From NCBI GenBank assembly GCA_036822015.1, contig DAISIL010000002.1, positions 11,268-75,267 of the forward strand: 64,000 nucleotides of DNA, written 5' to 3'. This DNA is from Bernardetiaceae bacterium (GTDB lineage Bacteria > Bacteroidota > Bacteroidia > Cytophagales > Bernardetiaceae). Shown piece by piece: positions 12,540 through 36,519 of this stretch. A program made the position numbers and the translations under genes. The notes below the pieces were generated by a model. That model saw nothing but the letters and a program-made list of their open reading frames with translations, ran no database searches and had not been told where the DNA came from. Position 1 is the stretch's first letter. Every line of letters starts with the position of its first letter.

Positions 12540-15500
12540 TCAGAAGCGCATCCCGATTACCAGTACGTCGTCTGTTTGTGGGCGGCTGCCTTTCCATTGC
12601 TTGAAGGCTTTTTCTAGGATTTCTTTCTGCTCGGCCATGCTTAGGTAGCTGAACTCCTCCAGCAGACCACGGAAGCGATGGGAGAGAAACTTACTGCCAT
12701 CGTCGCCCCCAAACTGATCGGGTAGCCCGTCGGTGAAGATATAAAATTGATCGCCTGGCACAATGGCTATCGTGTGGGTATCAAACTGCTTGTCTTTGTA
12801 GCGATCAGCATTACCGATCGGGAACTTACTTCCCTTGATTCGATTGATTTTCTGATCGCGGATGTAATACAAGGGGTTTTTGGCACCCGCAAACTGCATC
12901 TGCTCTTTTTCTTTGTCAATGACGACCAGAGACATATCCATGCCGTCGCTGCGCTTGGCACTTCCGGCAGAGGCCGAAAAGACATAGGCCAGTTCTTCAT
13001 CCAGGGCGGAGAGAATCTCGCCGGGGTTTTCTAGTCCCTTGCGCTCCACGACGTTGTTGATGATCGTGTTGGCCATGACGGTCATGAAGGCCCCCGGTAC
13101 GCCGTGTCCGGTACAGTCGATGGCCGCCAAAAAGAGCAGATTGTTTTTTTGGTACGACCAATAAAAATCACCGCTCACCACATCCTTGGGGTAGTACATC
13201 ACAAAAGCATCCTCAAAATAGCTGATGATCTTTTGGGGCGGGGGCATGATGGCATACTGAATCCGCTTAGCATACTGGATGCTATCCGAGAGCCGCTGAA
13301 AGGAATCTTCTAGCTTGGTGTTTTTTTCTTCGATCTCTTTGAGGTGCCGCGATTTTTCAAAAGCCGTGATGGCATACTCCCGAAATCGCAAGATTTTTCT
13401 CAAGCCATGGGCATCAAAGTCGGGGGTGCTGTCGTACTCAAAAAATATCAGGGCTTCCAGGACACCCTCGGAAAGCAACGAAATGACCAGCGAAGTCTTG
13501 CCTGCCGGCAACCCAAAAAGGGCAACCGGCGGGGTGTTGTCCACCAAGAAGAGATGCTCCTTAGGATAAGACTCCTCCCCTCGGTGGCAGTAGTTCATCA
13601 TCGCGCCAAAGTTTACTGTTTCCTCCGGCACAAGGTCAGGATCGAAGCCATAATGGCGAATCAGTTCAAAATGAAAGTTCTTTTCATCGAATGTCGTAAA
13701 GAAACCGCGTTTGGCTCCCTCAAACAACCCTGTTCCCTGCTCGAGCAAGACCTGAAATAAGGTCTCGAAGGATACCTCTTGATTGATGATGTGGGCGATG
13801 CGATCTACCTGGGCCAGCTCACGATCCTGCGCACGCAGCAGTTGCTCACGTTGGATGGCATCCCTGATTTGTCCTTCTACTTGTTGGGTCAGTCTTTGCT
13901 CTTTGCGTTTCAATCGCTGGATGTCGAAGCGATAAATACCCAGGGCTAGGGCAATGATAGAGAGCAGAATCACCGACCAGAACAGTTTGGTCTCATAAAA
14001 AAACGGGACAATTTCGAGGGAGATACTGGCCTCATTGAGGTTCCAGATGCCGTCGGCGTTGGCTGCCGTAAAGCGAAAAGTATAAGTGCCGACGGGTAAG
14101 TTGGTGTAGATTGCCTGGGGTTCGCCTACGGTCTGGTGCCAGTCTTCTTCAAAACCCTCGAGGCGATAGCGGGTCTTGATGCGGTGTACGGCCTCAAAAC
14201 TAATGGCATCAAACTGAAAGACAAAACGCCTGCGATCGGTCTTGAAGCGCAGTTTTTGTTGGCTCCTCCAGCGCACGTCGTTGCCTACACCATCGACGAT
14301 GAGCGTATGAATTTTGAGTGAAGGCGGCACTTGATTGATCGGTATTTCGCGTAGATTGAAGCTACTCAACCCTTTATTGGTGGGTATCCAGAGCTTGTCG
14401 TCCTGGTCGATGACCAGGTTGGGCTGCATCCCGAAGGCGCAATCACTGCTGCGCATTCCATCGCCTTCGTCATAGATCACCCATCCCGCTTGCTCCTCCC
14501 GAAGGAGTTCGTCATAAGCCACGCCAACGATTCCTCGGTTGGTGCTCATCCAAAGTTGGGACTTCTCGTCGGCGATCATGCCGTAGATGCTCCGGCTCAA
14601 GAGCGGATCGCTCCCGCTCAAATCTATGATCTGCTCCTCCCTGACCAAAGCCAACCCAGACTCTGTCCCCACAAAAATCTGGTCTGTTTCCTCCCCTGGA
14701 ATTGACCAAAGACAGAGCGCGACATTGCTCGGCAAGCCATCTTCGGTACTGAAAGACAATAAGTTGCCGTTGGCGCGATAGGCATGAACGCCCCCGCCGC
14801 TGGTGGCTATCCAGAGCGTACCATCCTGGGTCTGGTGCAGGTCGTTTACTTCTGTGTTGTAGAGTTCGGTGGTCGGGATCAGGAGCGTAAACTGCTGCTC
14901 GGCGTAGTAACCCACGCCTTGCTGGCCGGCAAGCCAGATGCCTCCCGCCTGCCGTTTATCCAGTGCTGTAACCTCTTGTCCTACCCAGGCTGGGGCAGGA
15001 ATGGGTATTAAGTCGTCCCTTGTCGTTGCCCCAAACAAACCTTCCGTAGCCGTTCCTATCCAGATGCTGCCCGCTGCATCGCGGGTCATGGATCGGATTT
15101 TATCTGAGAGTAGAGGAACAAACGCGCCTTCGCGGAGCGCAAAAAGCCCTTCGGTGGTACCGGCCCAGATGTCGCCTTGGGGCGTTTGGATGACCAGGCT
15201 TGCTCCCGTGGGGGGAAGTCCTTCGGTGGTGTCGTAGTTATCAAATTTGCCATCGCGGAGGCGAGCCAGTCCGGCGCGTTCAAAGCCCAGCCAAAGCCCG
15301 CCCTCGCGGTCTTCGAAGATCGCCCGAACGTGATTGGCGGGTAGCCCCTGGTCAATGTCTAAGCGATCAAAGTTTTGTTTATCTGCATTGTACCGGAGCA
15401 AGCCCTCGCCTTGCGTCCCGACCCAGCACGTCCCGTAGCTATCTCGGTAGAGGCTTGTAACGAAGGTATTGCGTAGCTGCGTGGTGGTGTTTTGCCGATG

Positions 15501-16217
15501 GTTCCAGGCGATAAGCCCCTTGCGTGTTCCGATCCAAAGGACAGAATCACTGACCGGCAGGAGTTGGGTAATGGTGGGATGGGGTAAGTCGAGTTTGATT
15601 TTTTGGAGGCGGCCATCACGATATTGGCACAAGCCCGCCTCGGTGCCAACCCAGATGCCGTCTTTGGTAACGCTAAGGGATTCAATGCGATCAGAGGGCA
15701 GCCCATCGCTGCGCTTGAACGTCTTCCAGGCCAGCCCATCCCAGAGGGAAAGTCCGAAGGTAGTGCCTACCCAGAGGTCTTTTTCGTGGTAAGCCAGGCA
15801 CAAAACGGCGTTATCGGCCAGCCCGTCCTGGGTGGTCAGGGAACGAAAAAAACCTTGTTGGACTCGGGTAAGACCCCCGCCGAGCGTCCCGACCCACAGC
15901 CCGCCCTCCTGCCGTGGCAAGAGCCGCTGGATGCGACTTGATCGGAGGGTGCTTTGCTTGTTTTGGTCTTTGTAAAAAACTTCAAAGAGGTGGTTATCAA
16001 AACGCACCAGCCCGTTATTTGTGCCGATCCAAAGGTAACCTTCGCTGTCCTGGAGAATATCGGTGATGGTGCTATGAGGTAGCCCGTTGGTTTGTGTCCA
16101 GGTCTGGATCAAGAACTGGGAGAGGGGCTTATCCGGAGGCAGGGCTTGGGCCCACGTCCAGGGGGCGATCCAGGCGAGCCAGCATACATACCACCAAAGA
16201 TTTTTTTTTCCTTTCAC
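12540..16217 (-). CDS. Giant sensor serine phosphatase (paralog of 7737-11618): signal peptide + beta-propeller repeats + Y_Y_Y + TM + coiled coil + PP2C/SpoIIE
   Basis: WIGT/WVGT propeller repeats, the Y_Y_Y block YRLEGFEEDWHQ...YTFRFTAANADG, one TM helix, and the PP2C motif KDVVSGDFYW...DCTGHGVPGAFMT. Confidence 0.8.
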   Translation of the reverse strand: MKGKKNLWWYVCWLAWIAPWTWAQALPPDKPLSQFLIQTWTQTNGLPHSTITDILQDSEGYLWIGTNNGLVRFDNHLFEVFYKDQNKQSTLRSSRIQRLLPRQEGGLWVGTLGGGLTRVQQGFFRSLTTQDGLADNAVLCLAYHEKDLWVGTTFGLSLWDGLAWKTFKRSDGLPSDRIESLSVTKDGIWVGTEAGLCQYRDGRLQKIKLDLPHPTITQLLPVSDSVLWIGTRKGLIAWNHRQNTTTQLRNTFVTSLYRDSYGTCWVGTQGEGLLRYNADKQNFDRLDIDQGLPANHVRAIFEDREGGLWLGFERAGLARLRDGKFDNYDTTEGLPPTGASLVIQTPQGDIWAGTTEGLFALREGAFVPLLSDKIRSMTRDAAGSIWIGTATEGLFGATTRDDLIPIPAPAWVGQEVTALDKRQAGGIWLAGQQGVGYYAEQQFTLLIPTTELYNTEVNDLHQTQDGTLWIATSGGGVHAYRANGNLLSFSTEDGLPSNVALCLWSIPGEETDQIFVGTESGLALVREEQIIDLSGSDPLLSRSIYGMIADEKSQLWMSTNRGIVGVAYDELLREEQAGWVIYDEGDGMRSSDCAFGMQPNLVIDQDDKLWIPTNKGLSSFNLREIPINQVPPSLKIHTLIVDGVGNDVRWRSQQKLRFKTDRRRFVFQFDAISFEAVHRIKTRYRLEGFEEDWHQTVGEPQAIYTNLPVGTYTFRFTAANADGIWNLNEASISLEIVPFFYETKLFWSVILLSIIALALGIYRFDIQRLKRKEQRLTQQVEGQIRDAIQREQLLRAQDRELAQVDRIAHIINQEVSFETLFQVLLEQGTGLFEGAKRGFFTTFDEKNFHFELIRHYGFDPDLVPEETVNFGAMMNYCHRGEESYPKEHLFLVDNTPPVALFGLPAGKTSLVISLLSEGVLEALIFFEYDSTPDFDAHGLRKILRFREYAITAFEKSRHLKEIEEKNTKLEDSFQRLSDSIQYAKRIQYAIMPPPQKIISYFEDAFVMYYPKDVVSGDFYWSYQKNNLLFLAAIDCTGHGVPGAFMTVMANTIINNVVERKGLENPGEILSALDEELAYVFSASAGSAKRSDGMDMSLVVIDKEKEQMQFAGAKNPLYYIRDQKINRIKGSKFPIGNADRYKDKQFDTHTIAIVPGDQFYIFTDGLPDQFGGDDGSKFLSHRFRGLLEEFSYLSMAEQKEILEKAFKQWKGSRPQTDDVLVIGMRF

Positions 16218-25121: not shown

Positions 25122-27545
25122 ATGGATCACCTGACCAAAGACTGCTTCATCTCCTATGGCCGCCGCGAAAGCCTTAGTTTTGTGGCGCATCTGCACCGAG
25201 CGTTGGTCTTATCCGGGCATACGGCCTGGTTTGATAAGGTGAACATCCCCGACGGCGAAGCCTATGACCGTCGGATCACGAACGGCATCGAGTCGGCGGA
25301 TAACTTCGTCTCCGTGATGGCTCCCCGCTGCCTGACCTCGCCTTATTGTTTGGTCGAACTCGAGTATGCCCGTGTGCTGGGCAAGCGCATCATCCCCATC
25401 AACCAGATGGTCATCTTCAAGACCGATGCCCAGGAGCTATCCAAAGGCGATCAGGCGGTGCTTGCCAACTTTTATGCCACCCACGGAATGCCCGACGCGG
25501 GTATTCGTACCACCCAGGATGTGCTTGACCGAACGCTTGCCTTGATCGGAACAACGGACTGGCTCGATGGCAAACAAATCCTATCCGACAACGACTGCTT
25601 ACGCCTCCAAGAGTGGGCCCAGAGCTACGAAAACCAATGGCATCGCCACGAAGATACCGCCTATCTAAGCGATCTCCGAATGCCTACCTTTGGGCAAATC
25701 ACGGACCAGATACCCGAAATCCTGGAGCGGATGCTGCTTGTCATTGAACGGCAAAAGACTTACGTACAAGAGCATACACGTATCACCCTCGATGCCCTCC
25801 ACTGGGCAAGCAACCAAAAATCAACCAATTATCTCGCCGTGGGCAAGGAGCGCAAGCAAGCCGAAGACTGGCTCCTGACCGAGTTTACGCCTCCTAAGCA
25901 GCCGCCCTGTACGCCCAGCGACATCTTGTGTGATTTTGTGGTAGAATCCCGAAAGAACGCCGAGAACCGCCACACCGATATTTTTATTTGCTATGCCGCC
26001 GAGGATAAAGCGATCCGAGATCAGGTCATCCGCGCCCTCTCGCGGCACGCCCTGACGACCTGGATACACGATAAGGACATCCAAAAAGGAGCCGAGTATG
26101 GCCGAGCCATTGAGCAGGGCATCGAAGGGGCAGATAACTTTTTCTTCTTCGTCTCGCCCCAGTCGGTCAAGTCCGAGTATTGCCTCAAAGAGCTCAACCA
26201 CGCCATCCTGTACCACAAACGCCTGGTGCCGCTCCTGATTCATTCCACGCCTGAGGCGGATATTCCCGAAGCCTTGCGCGGCTTACAGTACATTGACTTC
26301 ACCGACAACACCACGGAGAGTGATTTTGCCGCCGATCTCGACGACATCCTGAACCTGCTACACCAGGATCACGAGTACTACGAAGAACACAAAATCCTCC
26401 TCAACCGCGCCTTGCGCTGGCAGGAGTCGGGCCGCAAAAATGCGTTTTTGTTGCGCGGCTTTAACCTCGAAAATGCCAAAACCTGGCTACGCCTCCACGA
26501 AAAACGCCAGCAAAATCCGCCCCTGGATATTCATCGCCAACTCATCGAGACCAGCGAAGCCCTCAAAGGACAACTCGGAACGGATGTCTTTGTCTCCTAC
26601 TCCCGCAAAGACGGTGATTTTGCCCGTAAGCTCAACACCCGTCTCCAGGAAGCCGGCAAGACGACCTGGTTCGATCAGGAGAGCATCAGCTCGGGAGTCG
26701 ATTTTGAAAAAGAGATTTACAAAGGTATCGACGGGGCGGATAACATCGTCTTTTTGATCTCCCCAGATTCGATTGCCTCCGAGTACTGCGAACGGGAGGT
26801 AGCCTATGCCGCCCAACTCGGCAAACGCTTCATTACCCTCCTCTGCCGCCCCACCGATCCCCAGATGATGCCCGAAGTCTTGAGGGTCATCAACTGGATC
26901 GACTTTCACAGCAAGGCTTTCGATAAAGTCTTCCCCGAACTCATCCAGGAACTCGACTTAGATCGTGAACACGTTCAGCAGCACACCAAGCTCCAACAAC
27001 GCGCCCTCGAGTGGGCCGAAAACGACCACAGCCCCGATTTCTTGCTCAACGACATGGCCTGCCAGAAAGCCCAGCTTTGGCGCACGGCCGCCACGGAGGG
27101 CAAACCCAAAAACCCACCCCCAACAGCTTTGCAGCAACAGTACATCCAGCAAAGCCTAGAAGCCATTGAGCAAGCCAAAGCACAAGAACGCGCCGTTGCC
27201 CGCTCCCTCAAAAAACGCCTGCGCCTAGCCCGCATCGCGCTCGGCGTGGCAGCCTTGCTTTTGCTTGTGGCTGGCTTTGCGACGACACAAGCACTGATGA
27301 GCGAGAAAAAAGCAGCCTTTGCCCTACAGCAAGCCCTCGAAGCCGAGGAGAAAGCCCACCAAAACGAAATATACGCTATGGCGGCCCTGGATAGTGTCCG
27401 CCAGATTGAGATCGACAAAAAACTCAAGCTGGCCGAGAACTACATCAACTTCGGCGAAAAAGAACTAGCCCAACAGGCACTCGAAGATGTCCTGCGCCTC
27501 GACCCCAACAACACCGATGCCCAACAAAAACAGAAGAGCCTTTGA
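25122..27545 (+). CDS. Membrane-anchored protein with three tandem TIR (TIR_2-type) domains, a C-terminal TM helix and a short TPR/coiled-coil tail
   Basis: Three repeats of the TIR_2 pattern: CFISYGRRESLSFVAHLHRAL...ADNFVSVMAPRCLTSPYCLVELEYA; DIFICYAAEDKAIRDQVIRAL...ADNFFFFVSPQSVKSEYCLKELNHA; DVFVSYSRKDGDFARKLNTRL...ADNIVFLISPDSIASEYCEREVAYA. Each is followed by a conserved helical linker (RALxW...FLLxGxxLxxAxxW). TM helix LARIALGVAALLLLVAGFATTQAL near the C-terminus. Confidence 0.75.
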   Translation: MDHLTKDCFISYGRRESLSFVAHLHRALVLSGHTAWFDKVNIPDGEAYDRRITNGIESADNFVSVMAPRCLTSPYCLVELEYARVLGKRIIPINQMVIFKTDAQELSKGDQAVLANFYATHGMPDAGIRTTQDVLDRTLALIGTTDWLDGKQILSDNDCLRLQEWAQSYENQWHRHEDTAYLSDLRMPTFGQITDQIPEILERMLLVIERQKTYVQEHTRITLDALHWASNQKSTNYLAVGKERKQAEDWLLTEFTPPKQPPCTPSDILCDFVVESRKNAENRHTDIFICYAAEDKAIRDQVIRALSRHALTTWIHDKDIQKGAEYGRAIEQGIEGADNFFFFVSPQSVKSEYCLKELNHAILYHKRLVPLLIHSTPEADIPEALRGLQYIDFTDNTTESDFAADLDDILNLLHQDHEYYEEHKILLNRALRWQESGRKNAFLLRGFNLENAKTWLRLHEKRQQNPPLDIHRQLIETSEALKGQLGTDVFVSYSRKDGDFARKLNTRLQEAGKTTWFDQESISSGVDFEKEIYKGIDGADNIVFLISPDSIASEYCEREVAYAAQLGKRFITLLCRPTDPQMMPEVLRVINWIDFHSKAFDKVFPELIQELDLDREHVQQHTKLQQRALEWAENDHSPDFLLNDMACQKAQLWRTAATEGKPKNPPPTALQQQYIQQSLEAIEQAKAQERAVARSLKKRLRLARIALGVAALLLLVAGFATTQALMSEKKAAFALQQALEAEEKAHQNEIYAMAALDSVRQIEIDKKLKLAENYINFGEKELAQQALEDVLRLDPNNTDAQQKQKSL

Positions 27546-28560: not shown

Positions 28561-29052
28561 ATGAAAAAATTGTTGATCGCCCGCCATGCCCGCACCGAAG
28601 AGGCCGGCAAGGACGATGCCCACCGCACCCTAAGCGAAACAGGCATTACGGATACCCGTGAAATGGGACAAAAATTGAAAGCAAAGCATATCAAAGTGGA
28701 CAAAATATACAGTTCGCATTTGCGCCGGGCCGTCGCTACGGCACAAATACTAGGGCAGGTCTTGAACTTTCCACAAGAAAATATCGAAGAGATTGCCCCC
28801 GACTACCACAGCAGCCCCGAGGAGCTGTTGGCTTTTGTTCAGCAACTCGACGATGCGTTGGATACCGTCTTGATCGTCAATCACAACACCCCTGTTACGC
28901 ATCTGGTGGACTTGCTCACCAACACCACCCAAGAAATGCTCAACCCATCTTGTGTAGCCGAGGTTGATTTTGAGATTGAGCATTGGAGCGAAGTGGTAGC
29001 CGGCAAAGGCAAGCTCATCAAGATCGAACACCCCAGTTTTGACCACTACTAA
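28561..29052 (+). CDS. Histidine phosphatase superfamily protein (SixA-like phosphohistidine phosphatase)
   Basis: N-terminal LLIARHA (RHG-type catalytic His motif), ~160 aa, second conserved His region VNHN. Confidence 0.6.
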   Translation: MKKLLIARHARTEEAGKDDAHRTLSETGITDTREMGQKLKAKHIKVDKIYSSHLRRAVATAQILGQVLNFPQENIEEIAPDYHSSPEELLAFVQQLDDALDTVLIVNHNTPVTHLVDLLTNTTQEMLNPSCVAEVDFEIEHWSEVVAGKGKLIKIEHPSFDHY

Positions 29053-29055
29053 GCC

Positions 29056-29850
29056 ATGTCAGATAAGACGCTGTACGCTGCCTTCACGGATCCGCAGGCG
29101 CGTTGCCTGATCGCGGGCCCGTGCGTGATGGAAAGCCAGGAACTGCTTTTTGAGGTAGCCGAAAAAGTACAAAAGATCGCAGAAAAACAAGGGTTTACCT
29201 ATGTTTTTAAAGCCTCCTTCGACAAAGCCAACCGCACCTCGCTGGATTCCTTCCGAGGGCCAGGCCTTGAAAAAGGCCTTCGCTGGATGGAGGCGGTTAA
29301 GGAGCGGTTTGGTGTGCCGCTCACGACGGACGTACACGAGACGGCACAGGTAGCAGCCCTGGGAGAAGTCGTGGATATTATCCAGATTCCGGCCTTTCTT
29401 TGTCGCCAAACCGATCTGCTCCTGGCTGCCGGACAGACGGGCAAGATCGTCAATGTCAAGAAAGGGCAGTTCTTGACCGGAAAAGACATGCGCCATGCCT
29501 TACCCAAGATTCAAAGCACGGGCAACCACCAAATCCTGCTCACCGAGCGCGGCAATAGCTACGGAAACAATAACCTGGTTGTTGATTTTCGTAATGTTGT
29601 CGATATGTTGCAACTAGGCGTACCCGTCGTGATGGATGCCACCCACTCGGCACAGCTCCCCGGCGGGGCCGATGGAAAAAGTAGCGGCAATCGGGACTAT
29701 GCTTTGCCGCTGGCCAGGGCGGCCGCTTCCCTGGGGGTGCGGGCCTTCTTCATCGAAACCCACCCCAAACCAGAACTGGCCCTCTCTGACGGACCAAACA
29801 TGATTCCGTTGGACGAACTAGAAGAGACCTTGAAAAAGTTGAAGATTTAG
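29056..29850 (+). CDS. kdsA: 3-deoxy-8-phosphooctulonate (KDO-8-P) synthase
   Basis: Full-length match to the KdsA pattern (LIAGPCVMES..., FKASFDKANRTS, VMDATHS, FIETHP). Confidence 0.9.
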   Translation: MSDKTLYAAFTDPQARCLIAGPCVMESQELLFEVAEKVQKIAEKQGFTYVFKASFDKANRTSLDSFRGPGLEKGLRWMEAVKERFGVPLTTDVHETAQVAALGEVVDIIQIPAFLCRQTDLLLAAGQTGKIVNVKKGQFLTGKDMRHALPKIQSTGNHQILLTERGNSYGNNNLVVDFRNVVDMLQLGVPVVMDATHSAQLPGGADGKSSGNRDYALPLARAAASLGVRAFFIETHPKPELALSDGPNMIPLDELEETLKKLKI

Positions 29851-29858
29851 TGGGATTT

Positions 29859-29935
29859 GGTAGCGAGGGGGGGAATTGAACCCCCGACCTCCGGGTTATG
29901 AATCCGACGCTCTAACCATCTGAGCTACCTCGCCA
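29859..29935 (-). tRNA. tRNA-Met (anticodon CAU); elongator-type or lysidine tRNA-Ile2 cannot be distinguished by eye
   Basis: Reverse complement GGCGAGGTAGCTCAGATGGTTAGAGCGTCGGATTCATAACCCGGAGGTCGGGGGTTCAATTCCCCCCCTCGCTACCA folds as a cloverleaf (7-bp acceptor stem, D-arm GCTC/GAGC, anticodon loop TTCATAA, T-arm GGGGG-TTCAATT-CCCCC, encoded CCA). Confidence 0.85.
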
Positions 29936-30008
29936 GTACTTAGGGAACGCAAAAGTAACATCCCGTATCTTCAAATCCAAACCCGACCGCACAAAAAAAA
30001 TAACGCCC

Positions 30009-30743
30009 ATGGATAAGATACTGATTGTGGAGGATAACAAGCTGACCTATAACAATCTTGCGGCAGAGCTAGAAGATGCCGGCTATCAAGTCATGGACTA
30101 CACGCCCACAGGAGAACTCGCCCTCGAGCGGCTGGAGGAAAATCCCGATTTGGTGGTGTTGGATATTCAGTTGGCGGGCAAACTGAACGGTATTGCTGTT
30201 GCTCGGGCGATAGGGGAGCGTTTTTCGATACCCTTTATCTATTTGAGTTCTTACACCGAAAAGATGAACCAAGCCAAAAGCACCGCGCCCTTTGCCTTCC
30301 TGCCCAAGCCCGTTTCGGGAGAGGAACTCGAGCAAAAAATACGGGAATTACTCCTGGCTTGTAAGCAGTTACGCGGGAAAGACAAAAGGGAGGTCGCTGA
30401 TACGGCATCCGTCTTTTTCCCGAAGCGCAACGAAAAAGTACGCATTCGCCTCTCCGATATACAGTTTGTCGAGGCCGAGTCTCATCATGTGCTGCTGCAC
30501 ACCGATCAGCAGCGGCACGCGATCAGTCAGACGCTCCAAGAACTCCTCGATCACATCAGCGGATCTGTGCCGAACCATGGGCTGCTGCGCGTCCATCGCT
30601 CTTATCTGGTCAATATCAGCCGCATCGCTTCTGTGAAGGGAAGCACCCGCAATTATACGCTTTTGGTGGAGGGATGTCCCAAAGAAATCCCCGTTGGGCG
30701 TAGCTACGAAGCCCAAATGCTAATCGTGATGGGCTTGAAATAA
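30009..30743 (+). CDS. LytTR-family response regulator (REC + LytTR DNA-binding domain); orphan, with no adjacent kinase
   Basis: REC motifs ILIVEDN...VLDIQL...KP. C-terminal LytTR block VRIRLSDIQFVEAESHHVLLHT...LRVHRSYLVNISRI. Confidence 0.85.
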   Translation: MDKILIVEDNKLTYNNLAAELEDAGYQVMDYTPTGELALERLEENPDLVVLDIQLAGKLNGIAVARAIGERFSIPFIYLSSYTEKMNQAKSTAPFAFLPKPVSGEELEQKIRELLLACKQLRGKDKREVADTASVFFPKRNEKVRIRLSDIQFVEAESHHVLLHTDQQRHAISQTLQELLDHISGSVPNHGLLRVHRSYLVNISRIASVKGSTRNYTLLVEGCPKEIPVGRSYEAQMLIVMGLK

Positions 30744-30794
30744 CCTTTGGCGAAGTTCTTGCGTAAGGGAAAGTGTATCAAAAACACTAAGCCC

Positions 30795-33242
30795 ATGTCC
30801 GATTCCAACCGCGAGCGCGATCTCGTCCTGGCTCCCAACGAGTACGCCTTCATCTCTGACCAAACCAAAGGCAACATCAACGTCTATGTGGGGCCCTACA
30901 AAACCAGCCTAGCCAACACCGACAAGCCCGTTGCGTTCGATGACCAAAGCAAGCGTTTCTTGCGCTGCTCCCTCGATGAATCCACGCAGACCTTTACCGT
31001 AGCCCCCGAGGGCTGGTATATCATCCTCAAAAACCCACCCAAGCACGGCGATCAACCCAAAAACGGCACCAACAACAGCCTAGCCGAGCTCAACGTAGGC
31101 CGTAAGATCAACATCCCGGGACCGAAGCACTTTGCGCTCTGGCCAGGGCAGATGGTGCGCGTCGTGAGAGGGCATCATTTGCGCTCCAACCAATACCTGG
31201 TCGTTCGGGTCTATGACGAGGAAGAAGCCCGCCAAAACTGGGGCAAGGCCGTCATCAAGACCAAAAACGAAGAAAAAAACGATCAGCCCCTGACAGCGGA
31301 AGAAATCCCCGACTTAACCATGGGCAAGACCTTGATTATTAAAGGTGATGCTGTTTCGTTTTACATTCCCCCGACGGGTGTGGAGGTCGTCCGAGAGACC
31401 AACGGGGAGTACGTCCGGGAGGCCGTTACGCTCGAGCGGCTCGAGTACTGCATCCTTCTGGAGGAGGACGGCAACAAGCGGTTCATTCAGGGGCCGGCCG
31501 TCGTTTTTCCCAAACCCACGGAGGAGTTTGTGCAGCGCAACGGCTCCCGTAAGTTTTTGTCCATTGAGCTAAACGAGATGAGTGGCTTGTATATCAAGGT
31601 GATCGCTCCCTACACCGAGGACGGCAAGACCTACAAAGAAGGCGACGAGTTGTTTATCACCGGCAAAGAACAGATGATCTATTACCCGCGCCCCGAACAC
31701 GCAATCATCAAGTATGGCAAGCGCGAAAAACACTTTGCCGTAGCCATCCCCGACGGCGAAGGACGCTACTACCTCAATCGAAAGACGGGCAAGGTAGCCC
31801 TCCAGCGCGGCCCGGCCATGTTTCTGCCCGACCCACGGGCGTTTGTTTTGGTGAGGCGCATCCTCGAAGAGAAGCAGGTGCAGTTGTGGTTTCCGGGCAA
31901 CGAAGAAGCCCTCCGCTACAACAAAGCCCTGCAACAGATCGCCAAAAGCCCCCAAGAAAAATACGTCGCCGCACAGGAGGTCGATCAATCTCCCAAAATG
32001 GCCGTTGGGGCAGCACCCATGCCAGAGGTGCGCAAACGCGAGAAACCCTCCAAAGAGGTAGCCAGTGAGGAGTTTGAGCGCGGCGAAAGCTATACCCCTC
32101 CCCGAACGGTTACTCTGGACAACAAATACGACGGTGCCGTAACGATCAATGTCTGGACGGGATACGCCATCCTGGTCGTGAGCAAGACCGGCAAACGCAA
32201 GGTCATCACGGGGCCGCACACCTACCTGCTCGAGTACGACGAGACTCTCGAAGCCATGACGCTCTCCACGGGAACACCCAAGACAGAAGAAAACCCACTC
32301 CGAACGGTCTATTTGCGCGTTCTTCACAACCGAATTTCGGATGTCATCCTGGCCGAGTCGTCAGATTTTACGCAAGTTTCGCTGACGCTTTCGTATCGGG
32401 TCAATTTTGAGGGGGAAGCGGAGAAGTGGTTTAATGTTGAAAATTTTGTTAAATTCTTGACCGATCATCTCCGTTCCTTTGTCCGTAATGTGGTCAAGAA
32501 GCATACGATCATGGATTTTTATGCCAAAGGCGTGGATATTTTGCGGGATGCCATTTTGGGTGTTTCCGAAGGAGGCAAACGTCCCGGGCGGCTTTTTGAG
32601 GAAAACGGTATGCGCATCTACGATGTAGAGGTTTTGAATGTCCACCTGACCGACAAGAGCATTGAGCAGCTCCTGATCTCGGCCCAGCAGGAGGTCGTCA
32701 AGCAGACCTTGCGCATCGAAGCCGAAAAACGCAAGTTGGAGTTTACCCAATCGAGCGAGCAGATCGCGCAGCAGATCGCCAAAACCGAATCGGAGACCAA
32801 ACAAAACGCCTTCGGTCTCCAGATTCAGGAAGCCCAAAAGGAACTCGAACTCACCCTGGCACAACTCCAAAAGGTCATCCAGGAGGAGGAAGCCCAGCTC
32901 CAGGCACGCCTGGCCCAGCAGCAAAGCCTCAACGCCATCACGACGGCAGAGATCGAACGCCAACGCCAGCGCGAAGCCCAGACGCTCGAAACACAACAAG
33001 CCCAGCTCCAACAGCAGCTTACCTTGCTCAAAGGAGAAGTGGAGGCAACGGTCAGCAAAGCCCAGGCGATCTCCCCCGATTTGATCGCGGCCATGCAGGC
33101 TTTCTCCGACAAAGCCCTGGCCCAAAAGATGGCCGACTCGATGGCACCTTTGGCCATCCTGGGTGGGCGTAGCGTAGCCGATGTTTTTGCGCAGCTCCTC
33201 AAAGGCTCGGGCATCGAACACGTTTTGCAGCAAAACCCGTAA
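30795..33242 (+). CDS. Bacterial homolog of the major vault protein (MVP): N-terminal MVP repeat domains + SPFH-like shoulder domain + C-terminal cap-helix coiled coil
   Basis: N-terminus LVLAPNEYAFISDQTKGNINVYVGPYK parallels vertebrate MVP [27 protein letters not shown]. Shoulder region NGMRIYDVEVLNVHLTDKSIEQLLISAQQEVVKQTLRIEAE parallels [36 protein letters not shown]. Long Q/E/A-rich coiled coil follows. Length 816 aa versus ~860 aa for eukaryotic MVP. ATG at 30795 preferred; the tracked TTG is at 30747. Confidence 0.8.
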   Translation: MSDSNRERDLVLAPNEYAFISDQTKGNINVYVGPYKTSLANTDKPVAFDDQSKRFLRCSLDESTQTFTVAPEGWYIILKNPPKHGDQPKNGTNNSLAELNVGRKINIPGPKHFALWPGQMVRVVRGHHLRSNQYLVVRVYDEEEARQNWGKAVIKTKNEEKNDQPLTAEEIPDLTMGKTLIIKGDAVSFYIPPTGVEVVRETNGEYVREAVTLERLEYCILLEEDGNKRFIQGPAVVFPKPTEEFVQRNGSRKFLSIELNEMSGLYIKVIAPYTEDGKTYKEGDELFITGKEQMIYYPRPEHAIIKYGKREKHFAVAIPDGEGRYYLNRKTGKVALQRGPAMFLPDPRAFVLVRRILEEKQVQLWFPGNEEALRYNKALQQIAKSPQEKYVAAQEVDQSPKMAVGAAPMPEVRKREKPSKEVASEEFERGESYTPPRTVTLDNKYDGAVTINVWTGYAILVVSKTGKRKVITGPHTYLLEYDETLEAMTLSTGTPKTEENPLRTVYLRVLHNRISDVILAESSDFTQVSLTLSYRVNFEGEAEKWFNVENFVKFLTDHLRSFVRNVVKKHTIMDFYAKGVDILRDAILGVSEGGKRPGRLFEENGMRIYDVEVLNVHLTDKSIEQLLISAQQEVVKQTLRIEAEKRKLEFTQSSEQIAQQIAKTESETKQNAFGLQIQEAQKELELTLAQLQKVIQEEEAQLQARLAQQQSLNAITTAEIERQRQREAQTLETQQAQLQQQLTLLKGEVEATVSKAQAISPDLIAAMQAFSDKALAQKMADSMAPLAILGGRSVADVFAQLLKGSGIEHVLQQNP

Positions 33243-33246
33243 AAGT

Positions 33247-34578
33247 TTAGTTCTCTTCGATGCGCCGAATGGATGCCCCGAGGGCGTTGAGGCGTTGGTC
33301 GATGAACTGATAGCCTCTGTCGATCTGCTCGGCACTGCGGATGATGCTTGTCCCTTGAGCCGAGAGGGCAGCGATGAGCATGGCCACCCCGGCGCGGATG
33401 TCGGGGGAGGTCATGGTGATGCCGCGCAGGGGTGTTTGGCGGTTGAGACCGATGACGGTAGCTCGGTGAGGATCGCAGAGGATGATCTGTGCGCCCATCT
33501 CGATCAGTTTGTCCACAAAAAAAAGACGGCTCTCAAACATCTTTTGATGTACCAGCACCGTGCCTTTGGCTTGGGTAGCCACGACGAGGATGATACTCAG
33601 GAGGTCGGGCGTAAAGCCAGGCCAGGGCGCATCGGCTACCGTGAGGATGGAGCCATCAATGAACTTTTCGATGATGTAATGATCCTGTGCCGGTACGTGG
33701 ATGTTGTCGCCCTGGATGTCGAGTTGGATGCCGAGGCGTTCAAAGATGCGCGGAATCTGTCCGAGTTCTTGGACGGCCGCCGAGGTGATCGTGAGTGGGG
33801 ATTGGGTCATGGCGGCCAGCCCAATAAAACTACCGACTTCGATCATATCGGGCAACAAGCGGTGGGTAGCTCCGCCGAGGGCAGCTACCCCTTCGATCTG
33901 GAGCAGATTGGAACCGATGCCCGTGATGCGGGCCCCCATCGCGACAAGCAGGCGGCAGAGTTGCTGGATGTAGGGTTCGCAGGCAGCGTTGTAGATCGTC
34001 GTTTGTCCTTTGGAGAGGACGGCGGCCATCAGGATATTGGCTGTACCGGTAACGGAGGCTTCATCGAGCAGGAGGTATTTGCCCCGCAGGGCGGAGGCAT
34101 CAATGGTGTATTGACGATGCTGGGCGTTGTAATCGAACTTGGCACCGAGTTGTTGGAGACCCCAGAAGTGGGTATCGAGCCGCCGCCGCCCGATCTTATC
34201 GCCGCCCGGCTGGGGTATTTTGGCTTTGCCGAAGCGGGCCAGCAGCGGGCCCAGTACCATGACCGATCCGCGTAAGCCGCTACCTTTCTTCAAAAAATCG
34301 GGTGATTCTAGGTAGCTCAGGTCGATATGTTGGGCCGTGAAGGTATAGCTACCCGCCGTGGAGTGGGGGGTGATGTTTACGCCCAGGTCGCCCAGGAGGT
34401 CGATCAGGAGACGGACATCGCGGATGTCGGGGATGTTGTGTACCGTAACGGGCTGGTCAGTCAGGAGGGTGGCACAAAGGATTTGGAGGGCTTCGTTTTT
34501 GGCACCCTGGGGCTGTATGCTTCCGCTTAGCCGGGCCCCGCCCTGTACTTCAAAGGTAACTTTGTTGGAAGAGATCAA
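33247..34578 (-). CDS. murA: UDP-N-acetylglucosamine 1-carboxyvinyltransferase
   Basis: FEVQGGARLSGSIQPQGAKNEAL N-terminus and overall MurA pattern, including the active-site region around C...PGGDKIGRR. The start is probably a TTG near 34578; the tracked ORF is extended to 34683. Confidence 0.9.
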   Translation of the reverse strand: MISSNKVTFEVQGGARLSGSIQPQGAKNEALQILCATLLTDQPVTVHNIPDIRDVRLLIDLLGDLGVNITPHSTAGSYTFTAQHIDLSYLESPDFLKKGSGLRGSVMVLGPLLARFGKAKIPQPGGDKIGRRRLDTHFWGLQQLGAKFDYNAQHRQYTIDASALRGKYLLLDEASVTGTANILMAAVLSKGQTTIYNAACEPYIQQLCRLLVAMGARITGIGSNLLQIEGVAALGGATHRLLPDMIEVGSFIGLAAMTQSPLTITSAAVQELGQIPRIFERLGIQLDIQGDNIHVPAQDHYIIEKFIDGSILTVADAPWPGFTPDLLSIILVVATQAKGTVLVHQKMFESRLFFVDKLIEMGAQIILCDPHRATVIGLNRQTPLRGITMTSPDIRAGVAMLIAALSAQGTSIIRSAEQIDRGYQFIDQRLNALGASIRRIEEN

Positions 34579-34800
34579 AGGGAGGTTGTGTTTGTTTAGG
34601 ACAAAGGTACAAACTAAGTGCCTGACCCAAACAGTGGATGCCCTGACCAGAGACGTACAAAAAATGATAGCCAGCAATGGCAAAGATTCCGTTAAAACGC
34701 CTTACGAAAATTTTACTTTTTTTGTAAGTCTGTATGCCAAAGTTGCTTCAAATTGGACTTATGTTTGATGATTGTAAGTCCTAATCTTTCAAAAAAATCT

Positions 34801-35658: not shown

Positions 35659-35697
35659 TCCTTTTTATCTTCACACCCCCAAACAAAAAAAATAACG

Positions 35698-36519
35698 ATG
35701 CAGATGTTTAAGCTAGTCAGTTTTGCTTGCTTGTTAGGACTTATGGTAGCGTGTTCCTCACCTACGGAGGAAACACAAAACGCGCCAGCAGCGGCAGAAG
35801 AAGAAGCCACCAGCAGCGAAGAGCGTACTACTCCGGCAGCAGCCGAAAAGCGCGTTGCTCCCGCGCCGGTGTTTGAGCCAGGAGCGGCCAAGCCCGCCAA
35901 CCACGAAATGAGTTTTTCGACGCATTCCGACTTTTACTACTGCTTCTGCCAGAACGGACAGGCGATGCGTAGCGTAGAAGGCTTCTTGTCTTTTGGCACC
36001 TGGGAGGATACCTCCGAGGAGTTGGTGGTGAAGTTCTCCAAAGAACTCATCAGAAACGGCAGAGGCACGTATGATAACCTCGGCGGGGCAGATGCCCCCA
36101 GCTGGGCTTATTACGACGAGCATTTTTACGCCCTCGAAAACACGCCCCAAGATGCCCGCCGCATGGAGGGTTTTATGAAAAACTACATGGAGGAAGAAGG
36201 GATGATCTTGAAGCCCATGGACAAGGATAGCTGGCAAAGCTACTGCGCCCGGCCGTTTAGCTTCCTGGGAAGCTATCCTTTCACGGCTTATGTAGCACTG
36301 GATGGCCCACTGGTCAAAGGCCTGGACAAGAAAGCCCTTACCGAAATGCGTAACGAAATCTACGCCCGACACGGATTGGACTTTCCGGACGAGGAAACGA
36401 AGACCTACTTCGCCTCCAAGGACTGGTACAAGCCACAATACGACGACGTTGAAAACCTGCTTTCGCCCATAGAAAAGTTCAACATAGGGTTTCTCAATGA
36501 CCTTTTGGGAAAACTCTAA
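35698..36519 (+). CDS. Lipoprotein with C-terminal YARHG domain
   Basis: Lipobox LMVACSS. Low-complexity Ala/Glu-rich linker. C-terminal EIYARHGLDFPDEETKTYFASKDWYKP matches the YARHG signature. Confidence 0.6.
   Translation: MQMFKLVSFACLLGLMVACSSPTEETQNAPAAAEEEATSSEERTTPAAAEKRVAPAPVFEPGAAKPANHEMSFSTHSDFYYCFCQNGQAMRSVEGFLSFGTWEDTSEELVVKFSKELIRNGRGTYDNLGGADAPSWAYYDEHFYALENTPQDARRMEGFMKNYMEEEGMILKPMDKDSWQSYCARPFSFLGSYPFTAYVALDGPLVKGLDKKALTEMRNEIYARHGLDFPDEETKTYFASKDWYKPQYDDVENLLSPIEKFNIGFLNDLLGKL

Follow-up and report, generated by a model that had tools for sequence, protein, structure and literature searches.

A 64,000-nucleotide stretch of a Bernardetiaceae metagenome-assembled genome (assembly GCA_036822015.1, contig DAISIL010000002.1, positions 11,268 to 75,267; hereafter the window) carries, intact and at full length, an orthologue of the bacterial major-vault-protein (MVP) family. 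Eukaryotic MVP alone suffices to build the shell of the vault, which in the rat is a hollow barrel of 39-mer halves. Our best explanation, to which we assign a probability of about 0.6, is that the bacterial gene is a stand-alone member of the vault family, that its full-length product would form a soluble vault-like dome or cage, and that the genes around it are incidental neighbours. A preliminary description of this DNA had proposed a complete vault-shell subunit rather than a fragment, encoded within a regulated and possibly horizontally acquired module; as detailed below, the proposal about the protein is borne out by alignment and modelling, while the proposal about its setting is not.

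Alignment and predicted fold from the first repeat to the cap

Pfam recovers two vault families above their cut-offs. MVP_shoulder (PF11978) matches at E 4.5e-29 and 101.3 bits (cut-off 25) over profile positions 3-118 of 118, and is also matched in 24/24 orthologues; Vault_3 matches at E 4.8e-8 and 33.4 bits (cut-off 28.8) and covers the last repeat. PADLOC and NCBIfam contain no model that matches the protein. In sequence searches of the Protein Data Bank (PDB), MVP was the only family returned (E 1e-24 with a profile), with strong coverage of residues ~455-770 and weak coverage of 213-346. A profile of 24 close orthologues placed bacterial residues 212-800 onto residues 274-843 of human MVP (99.2%; the human reference sequence was checked and is identical to PDB 11dr_A). 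For a broader profile, we searched 1.84 billion cluster representatives exhaustively and obtained 150 full-length relatives with 40-55% identity. Aligned to human MVP with hhalign, the 121-sequence profile extended from bacterial residue 5 to 813 and from human residue 3 to 864, with a probability of 99.9%, E-values of 7.5e-32 to 2.4e-32, and 688-708 aligned columns. The N-terminus could be aligned to human MVP because this broader profile carried it; narrower inputs did not. For the first repeat, an alignment made by eye in the preliminary description (8 identities in 27 positions) keeps its register in the profile-profile alignment, where bacterial residues 9-48 face human residues 7-45. The similarity thus extends beyond the coiled coil, and Pfam, hhalign, and the structure searches described next all recover MVP.

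A first AlphaFold2 model, computed from 24 sequences (60-81% identity), had a predicted local distance difference test score (pLDDT) of 53 overall and below 50 for residues 1-449; Foldseek searches with it were informative for the C-terminal half only, and we replaced it with a model from the 121-sequence alignment. This second model is a confident monomer (pLDDT 84.3, predicted template-modelling score 0.64), with pLDDT above 90 over most of residues 4-390 and 445-620. Its top 12 Foldseek matches in the PDB are whole MVP or vault chains (E 2e-35 to 2e-26); the next match is the N-terminal crystal structure of mouse MVP R1-R7 (E 1.8e-15, template-modelling score 0.54), and SPFH cages come after that.

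From the N-terminus, the model consists of eight groups of short beta-strands, a two-helix element, a disordered insert, an alpha/beta shoulder, one long helix, and a low-confidence tail (Table 1). The N-terminal array of MVP-type beta repeats is thus present at the level of structure. We counted the repeats (about eight) from the strand groups in the model, since comparison of the sequence with itself gave one weak pair (178-249 versus 284-355, E 0.01), too weak for counting. R1 comprises residues 5-52 and is the counterpart of the domain that forms the waist in eukaryotic MVP. Segment 358-445 varies among the 121 homologs from 47 to 108 residues in length, with a conservation of 0.34, and pLDDT in its insert falls below 50 at 398-414 and 430-441. 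The K/E-rich part of this insert (residues 385-445, window 31947-32129) stands where human MVP carries its own R8 loop insert, and the conserved motif FTPPRTITLD follows it. The last repeat shares 18 identities with human R9 (458-519) and contains a conserved LSTGxPK loop, in which K496 is invariant across the 121 sequences and P495 is present in 116 of them.

The shoulder has an SPFH fold, which places the protein in the SPFH/band 7 superfamily; an SPFH-like shoulder motif singled out in the preliminary description (NGMRIYDVEVLNVHL...) begins at residue 604 and therefore lies within this domain. The long, Q/E-rich cap helix described there is equally evident, running without interruption from 621 to 756 in the model with 36% Q+E, versus 16% in the whole protein, and no proline. 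Its sequence is variable among the 121 homologs (conservation 0.34, versus 0.6-0.72 in the repeats and shoulder), yet its length is kept (median 137 residues, range 119-166). The motif in the C-terminal tail is nearly invariant among close orthologues.

As called, the open reading frame (ORF) spans 30747-33242 on the + strand and opens at a TTG. We placed the start at the ATG at 30795 because all orthologues share the N-terminus that it gives (MSDSNRERDLVL), each beginning M-S/A-D-S-N-R-E-R-D-L-V-L. The gene is therefore where the preliminary description had put it, but its product has 815 rather than 816 amino acids, in agreement with a 100% identical NCBI record of 815 amino acids that is labelled "hypothetical protein". 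The maximum 19-residue Kyte-Doolittle hydropathy is 1.23, and we found no transmembrane or amphipathic anchor; by these measures, the protein is predicted to be soluble and free of any membrane anchor.

Bacterial relatives of MVP have been described before. Daly et al. 2013 (PMC3762200) gave Microscilla marina A1ZGE7, Flexibacter litoralis I4AHY9, and Saprospira grandis H6L4P8 as putative MVPs of bacteria, with folding and docking predicted to resemble those of MVP, and reported two MVP copies in Plesiocystis; Sokolskyi 2019 (10.1101/872010) covered the same group, remarking on the shoulder's band-7 character; and a 2023 preprint (10.1101/2023.11.10.566534) modelled bacterial MVPs with ColabFold. 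The M. marina and Flexibacter (Bernardetia) litoralis proteins are direct orthologues of the one in the window (66-68% identity over 99-100% of its length), and a protein from Enhygromyxa salina (Myxococcales) is 58% identical. The known bacterial MVP-like proteins, from Cytophagales, Saprospiraceae, and Myxococcales, have the same Vault_3 and MVP_shoulder domains (often with Band_7) and about 820 amino acids, and likewise lack experimental characterization; we found no experimental study of a bacterial vault or MVP homolog in the literature searched. Nothing substantive sets the window's protein apart from them, and only its neighbourhood of a LytTR regulator, a tRNA-Met gene, and murA is particular. 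With this gene, a family that has been in the literature since 2013 and is still uncharacterized gains a further orthologue.

This family is larger and broader than the published lists. It comprises 1,648 clusters at 50% identity, and a scan with one genome per species (185,579 species) found a relative in at least 357 genomes. The view of bacterial MVP homologs as "sporadic and uncharacterised" therefore needs amending in its first half, given such numbers and orthologues published since 2013, and stands in its second as far as experiments are concerned. The 80 best of the 357 are 57-80% identical to the window's protein, the closest orthologue is 81% identical, and the homologs within this 57-81% range span at least ten phyla; among the 80 best are sequences from Bacteroidota, Sericytochromatia, Riflebacteria, Desulfobacterota, Vulcanimicrobiota, Chloroflexota, Myxococcota, Planctomycetota, and others. 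An identity of ~58-60% across phyla, sustained over 815 residues, is what we would expect if most of the protein's surface were interface.

Table 1. Features of the MVP gene, its product, and neighbouring genes, in window coordinates.
Feature	Position	Strand	Basis or remark
MVP homolog, coding sequence	30795..33242	+	815 amino acids plus stop codon
About seven consecutive small beta-sheet repeats, residues 5-357	30807..31865	+	Equivalent to MVP R1 to R7/R8
Two helices (359-384), then variable K/E-rich insert, predicted disordered, residues 358-445	31866..32129	+	Maps to human R8 380-457
Last MVP repeat (R9 equivalent), residues 446-510	32130..32324	+	Vault_3 464-508 (numbering offset +1); human R9 458-519
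Shoulder domain (SPFH/band-7 fold), residues 511-619	32325..32651	+	MVP_shoulder region
Single long Q/E-rich cap helix, residues 620-756	32652..33062	+	Aligned to human cap helix 647-802
C-terminal tail, residues 757-815, motif SPDLIAALQAF..MAPLAILGG	33063..33239	+	Possible cap-ring equivalent
Protein of 807 amino acids with three TIR_2 domains	25122..27545	+	Pfam E 2.3e-72; PADLOC ThsB- and Aga-type TIR models
kdsA (3-deoxy-8-phosphooctulonate synthase), housekeeping	29056..29850	+	NCBIfam NF003543, 373.5 bits (cut-off 242); beyond the tRNA
tRNA-Met(CAT)	29858..29934	-	ARAGORN; Rfam tRNA 68.1 bits
LytR/AlgR-family response regulator (REC + LytTR), 244 amino acids	30009..30743	+	Pfam, NCBIfam; no adjacent histidine kinase
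Spacer from regulator stop codon to MVP ATG, 51 nucleotides	30744..30794	+	Sequence
murA (UDP-N-acetylglucosamine 1-carboxyvinyltransferase), convergent housekeeping gene	33247..34683	-	NCBIfam TIGR01072, 427 bits (cut-off 392.7)

A candidate shell and a less likely membrane scaffold

The MVP homolog probably forms a soluble, vault-like homo-oligomeric shell. Many copies would pack side by side, as in eukaryotic MVP and other SPFH-family proteins; we infer such lateral packing because eukaryotic MVP does so and because every solved SPFH relative in our fold searches forms rings or domes. Repeats and shoulders would then make up a wall, a bundle of the long helices would form a tapering cap, and the first repeat would be a candidate for the rim, or for the contact between two halves. 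The expected product is a vault-like structure in the cytoplasm, soluble and hollow, either a dome or a closed cage.

To look for genes that might accompany such a shell, we compared the ORFs within 8 kb of MVP at 80 species loci by all-against-all clustering. No conserved partner or cargo gene emerged at these loci: the largest neighbour cluster reached 10/80 and consisted of generic two-component kinases and regulators. We therefore rejected a conserved partner or cargo, as only lineage-specific synteny and generic two-component, ABC, LepA, radical-SAM, and CorA genes were common. Because there is no conserved neighbour in any lineage, a dedicated cargo or assembly factor does not appear to be encoded beside MVP, and the shell protein would be encoded alone, much as eukaryotic MVP needs no other protein for its shell.

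Comparison with eukaryotic MVP (rat, human, and rabbit; PDB 4V60, 9BW5, and 9Z4W) shows likeness in collinearity from the first repeat to the cap-ring region, domain order, folds, the long cap helix, and the lack of a membrane anchor. The two differ in sequence (~17-25% identity) and in dimensions: the bacterial protein has about eight repeats versus nine in rat and human MVP, R1-R5 occupy bacterial residues 1-209 (209 residues) versus human residues 1-272 (272), and the cap helix has ~136 residues versus ~155. The vault of eukaryotes is a 78-mer particle, whereas the bacterial protein is known here from its sequence and a monomer model. A further prokaryotic parallel comes from Asgard archaea, whose MVP homologues combine repeats, shoulder, and cap helix and are likewise known from prediction only (Nat Microbiol 2026, PMC12962969). 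For the Asgard representative, five repeats and a model of a 10-mer cup were reported; the bacterial protein, with about eight repeats, can be aligned to human MVP from the first repeat as far as the cap-ring region.

Several observations weigh against a vault-like shell encoded by a stand-alone gene. Assembly into an oligomer is argued from homology only. Compared with rat MVP, the bacterial protein is about one repeat short, and it aligns sparsely over human R2-R5 (21-37 of ~54 columns), and its geometry and copy number could accordingly differ greatly from those of a vault. Residues 1-240 taken alone did not align significantly with the single human MVP sequence in hhalign (E 0.0057, probability 6.5%), and the Pfam families Vault (PF01505), Vault_2, and Vault_4 score neither on the protein nor among the 24 orthologues, with Vault_4 appearing once at E 0.39. 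The tail shares only 6 identities in 40 columns with the human cap ring (803-845), and its pLDDT is below 55. As for the minor vault components, Rfam returned only tRNA on the 64-kb window and thus no vault RNA, and there is no TROVE (TEP1) or PARP domain among the genes scanned with Pfam (~11.7-47.8 kb). Finally, the response regulator gene that precedes MVP may be co-transcribed with it in the Bernardetiaceae genome, as a terminator scan found no hairpin-like site in the short spacer between them.

The alternative that fares best is that the protein is a membrane-apposed scaffold of the SPFH type, like flotillin, HflK/C, prohibitin, or stomatin: a single dome would stand with its rim on the inner face of the cytoplasmic membrane, fencing off a patch of it, instead of forming a free, closed vault of two halves. 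We consider this unlikely, at perhaps one chance in five. It gains some credit from published reports that SPFH assemblies of solved structure mostly abut a membrane (PMC12624060) and that eukaryotic vaults include a subpopulation associated with membranes in situ (PMC13100048). However, the SPFH cage formers (HflK/C, QmcA, flotillin, prohibitin, erlin, and stomatin) are membrane-anchored and lack the MVP repeat array, whereas the protein in the window has no anchor of either kind sought, and ~450 residues of MVP repeats take the place of the membrane-proximal region of SPFH proteins, matching the wall of a free-standing vault. Its first repeat, moreover, aligns with the waist domain of eukaryotic MVP. 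We thus favour the soluble vault-like shell over a membrane scaffold.

A more general proposition is that, in at least ten phyla, bacteria assemble true vault-like cages from a single stand-alone gene, whose strongly conserved product has about eight repeats, and without a partner or cargo encoded in cis. We advance it tentatively, judging its chances to be a little short of even. If true, prokaryotes would have invented the vault shell, its function would not depend on vault RNA, TEP1, or PARP4, and the cultured carriers Bernardetia litoralis, Microscilla marina, Thermoflexibacter ruber, and Enhygromyxa salina might offer a tractable bacterial system for vault function. The family is worthwhile in any case, as the function of eukaryotic vaults is still unresolved.

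The ligand pocket and a nearby TIR protein

Human MVP binds NAD+, ADP, and ADP-ribose in a pocket of the shoulder (PMC12280208), and the vault component TEP1 is a TIR-like NADase (10.64898/2026.05.01.722283). About 3 kb upstream of the MVP homolog, the window encodes a protein with three TIR domains. These facts suggest a second alternative, in which the MVP homolog would serve in the sequestration of ligands or nutrients or in antiviral defence, its shoulder binding nucleotides or NAD-derived molecules for which the triple-TIR protein might be a source. The conserved LSTGxPK loop with its invariant lysine, and the frequent K or R at positions 494, 508, and 513, would fit such a role. The human pocket itself argues against it. 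Among its 13 residues (PMC12280208: R437, R504, K506, R507, P508, H509, R511, L517, D521, F522, W545, P565, and K573), only K506 is kept, as K496; with the neighbouring P505, kept as P495, this makes two of 14 positions. In place of human R507, H509, R511, W545, P565, and K573, the alignment shows T, E/D, L, V, E, and D, respectively. Judged residue for residue from the alignment, the basic NAD+/ADP-ribose pocket of human MVP is not conserved in the bacterial homolog. There is also no TIR protein near MVP at the 80 other loci, the one in the window is of the TIR_2/ThsB rather than the DUF4062 type, PADLOC does not match the MVP homolog, and no conserved defence genes lie nearby. A role in sequestration or defence therefore seems improbable to us, on the order of one in ten.

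The proximity of the triple-TIR protein is suggestive given the link between TIR-like NADases and vaults, yet we rejected a connection to vault NADase biology for the two reasons just given, the lack of any TIR gene near MVP elsewhere and the type of TIR domain. The protein has a hydrophobic stretch in its C-terminal part, seen by eye in the translation. Its gene lies between those for a transketolase (upstream) and MscS (downstream), with no recognizable partner gene adjoining.

For later work on the family, the useful results are its breadth, the lack of a conserved gene neighbour (and hence of a genetically linked cargo or partner), and the lack of conservation of the human NAD+/ADP-ribose pocket.

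Gene neighbourhood and inheritance

What made this locus look special was a regulator, a tRNA gene, and a possible genomic island, and none of these holds up. An orphan LytTR-family response regulator does precede MVP by 51 nucleotides, as the preliminary description had noted, with Response_reg and LytTR domains in its ORF. A REC-LytTR gene is found within 8 kb of MVP at 0/80 other species' loci, nor does one lie beside the 81% identical orthologue (0/81 in all). On one side of that orthologue lie genes for ArsC, a DNA glycosylase, and rpoB, and on the other an unrelated unknown gene; the latter, which lies downstream, has no similarity to the unknown genes in the window. More broadly, at none of the 80 other loci does MVP have a counterpart of the window's regulator, murA, kdsA, or TIR protein beside it. 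The regulator is unusually isolated in sequence space: leaving aside its own record, its best homolog among 5.8 billion proteins has 34% identity, and just 10 proteins reach E 1e-10. A look-up of the same regulator in other assemblies gave none on record.

The pair had also been described as lying immediately downstream of the tRNA-Met gene. The tRNA does adjoin it, at 74 nucleotides from the regulator start, but it is on the minus strand and divergent from the regulator, so that "downstream" applies in window coordinates only, and its 3' end (29858) faces kdsA. Genomic islands usually insert at the 3' end of a tRNA gene. We found no integrase or transposase among the genes scanned (11.7-47.8 kb) and no tRNA-derived direct (att-like) repeats in 24-36 kb. 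The local GC content is 0.52-0.56, versus 0.49-0.58 in the flanks, and GC at third codon positions (GC3) is 0.70 for MVP and 0.61 for the regulator, within the 0.55-0.71 seen in other genes, kdsA and murA among them. Beyond MVP, the next gene is a convergent murA, as previously noted, whose ORF ends 4 nucleotides beyond the MVP stop codon. This ORF is listed from a TTG at 34683 (478 amino acids), yet the family models align only from its residue 43, and the true start is probably near 34560.

A neighbour-joining tree of 78 homologs groups them largely by phylum and places the window's protein within Cytophagales, as sister to another Cytophagales sequence; it is a rough test, without support values and without eukaryotic sequences. 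In the same tree, a second Bacteroidota group (loci L045, L061, L073, L077, L074, L068, and L080) stands apart from the main Cytophagales clade and includes four Cytophagales sequences and one from Saprospiraceae; it could be a paralogous lineage or the result of an old transfer.

From these sequence features, we conclude that the MVP gene is most plausibly a vertically inherited chromosomal gene of its lineage, in an ordinary setting between kdsA/tRNA-Met and murA, and the regulator and tRNA-Met appear to be incidental neighbours particular to this genome. The last and weakest alternative, that regulator and MVP form a two-gene module acquired horizontally at a tRNA-Met hotspot, with the LytTR regulator switching on cage production in response to a signal, has in its favour a shared strand and possible co-transcription, the nearby tRNA, and a local synteny unlike that of the closest orthologue, but we regard it as highly improbable, since the adjacency recurs at none of 81 loci, the regulator has no relative above 34% identity while MVP has an orthologue at 81%, the tRNA is encoded on the other strand and turns its 3' end away from the pair, there is no integrase, transposase, att-like repeat, or shift in GC or GC3, MVP nests in a Cytophagales clade in a tree that largely follows phyla, and the pair is flanked by kdsA and murA.

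Observations on expression at other loci touch on the stand-alone gene as well. In orthologues from Riflebacteria, Sericytochromatia, and Vulcanimicrobiota (loci L028-L055), clear TATAAT-like boxes and AGGAGG ribosome-binding sites lie in the 90 nucleotides directly before the MVP start, consistent with independent, monocistronic expression in these lineages outside Bacteroidota. We also considered the Bacteroidota-type promoter TAnnTTTG before MVP and rejected it, as it occurs upstream in only 12/64 loci and at inconsistent positions.

Near the regulator, a gene for a SixA-like phosphohistidine phosphatase lies two genes upstream (window 28561-29052, + strand; TIGR00249 at 67.2 bits, cut-off 74.5). 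An identical 15-mer, ACAAAAAAAATAACG, occurs at 29991-30005 and 35683-35697, directly before the ATGs of the LytTR regulator and of a YARHG-domain gene (35698-36519); a common A-rich element, promoter-proximal or for translation initiation, is one possibility, and chance is another. Elsewhere in the window, a protein of 1,225 amino acids (12540-16217, - strand) has two-component-regulator propeller repeats (Reg_prop, Y_Y_Y) together with a SpoIIE/PP2C phosphatase domain at its C-terminus.

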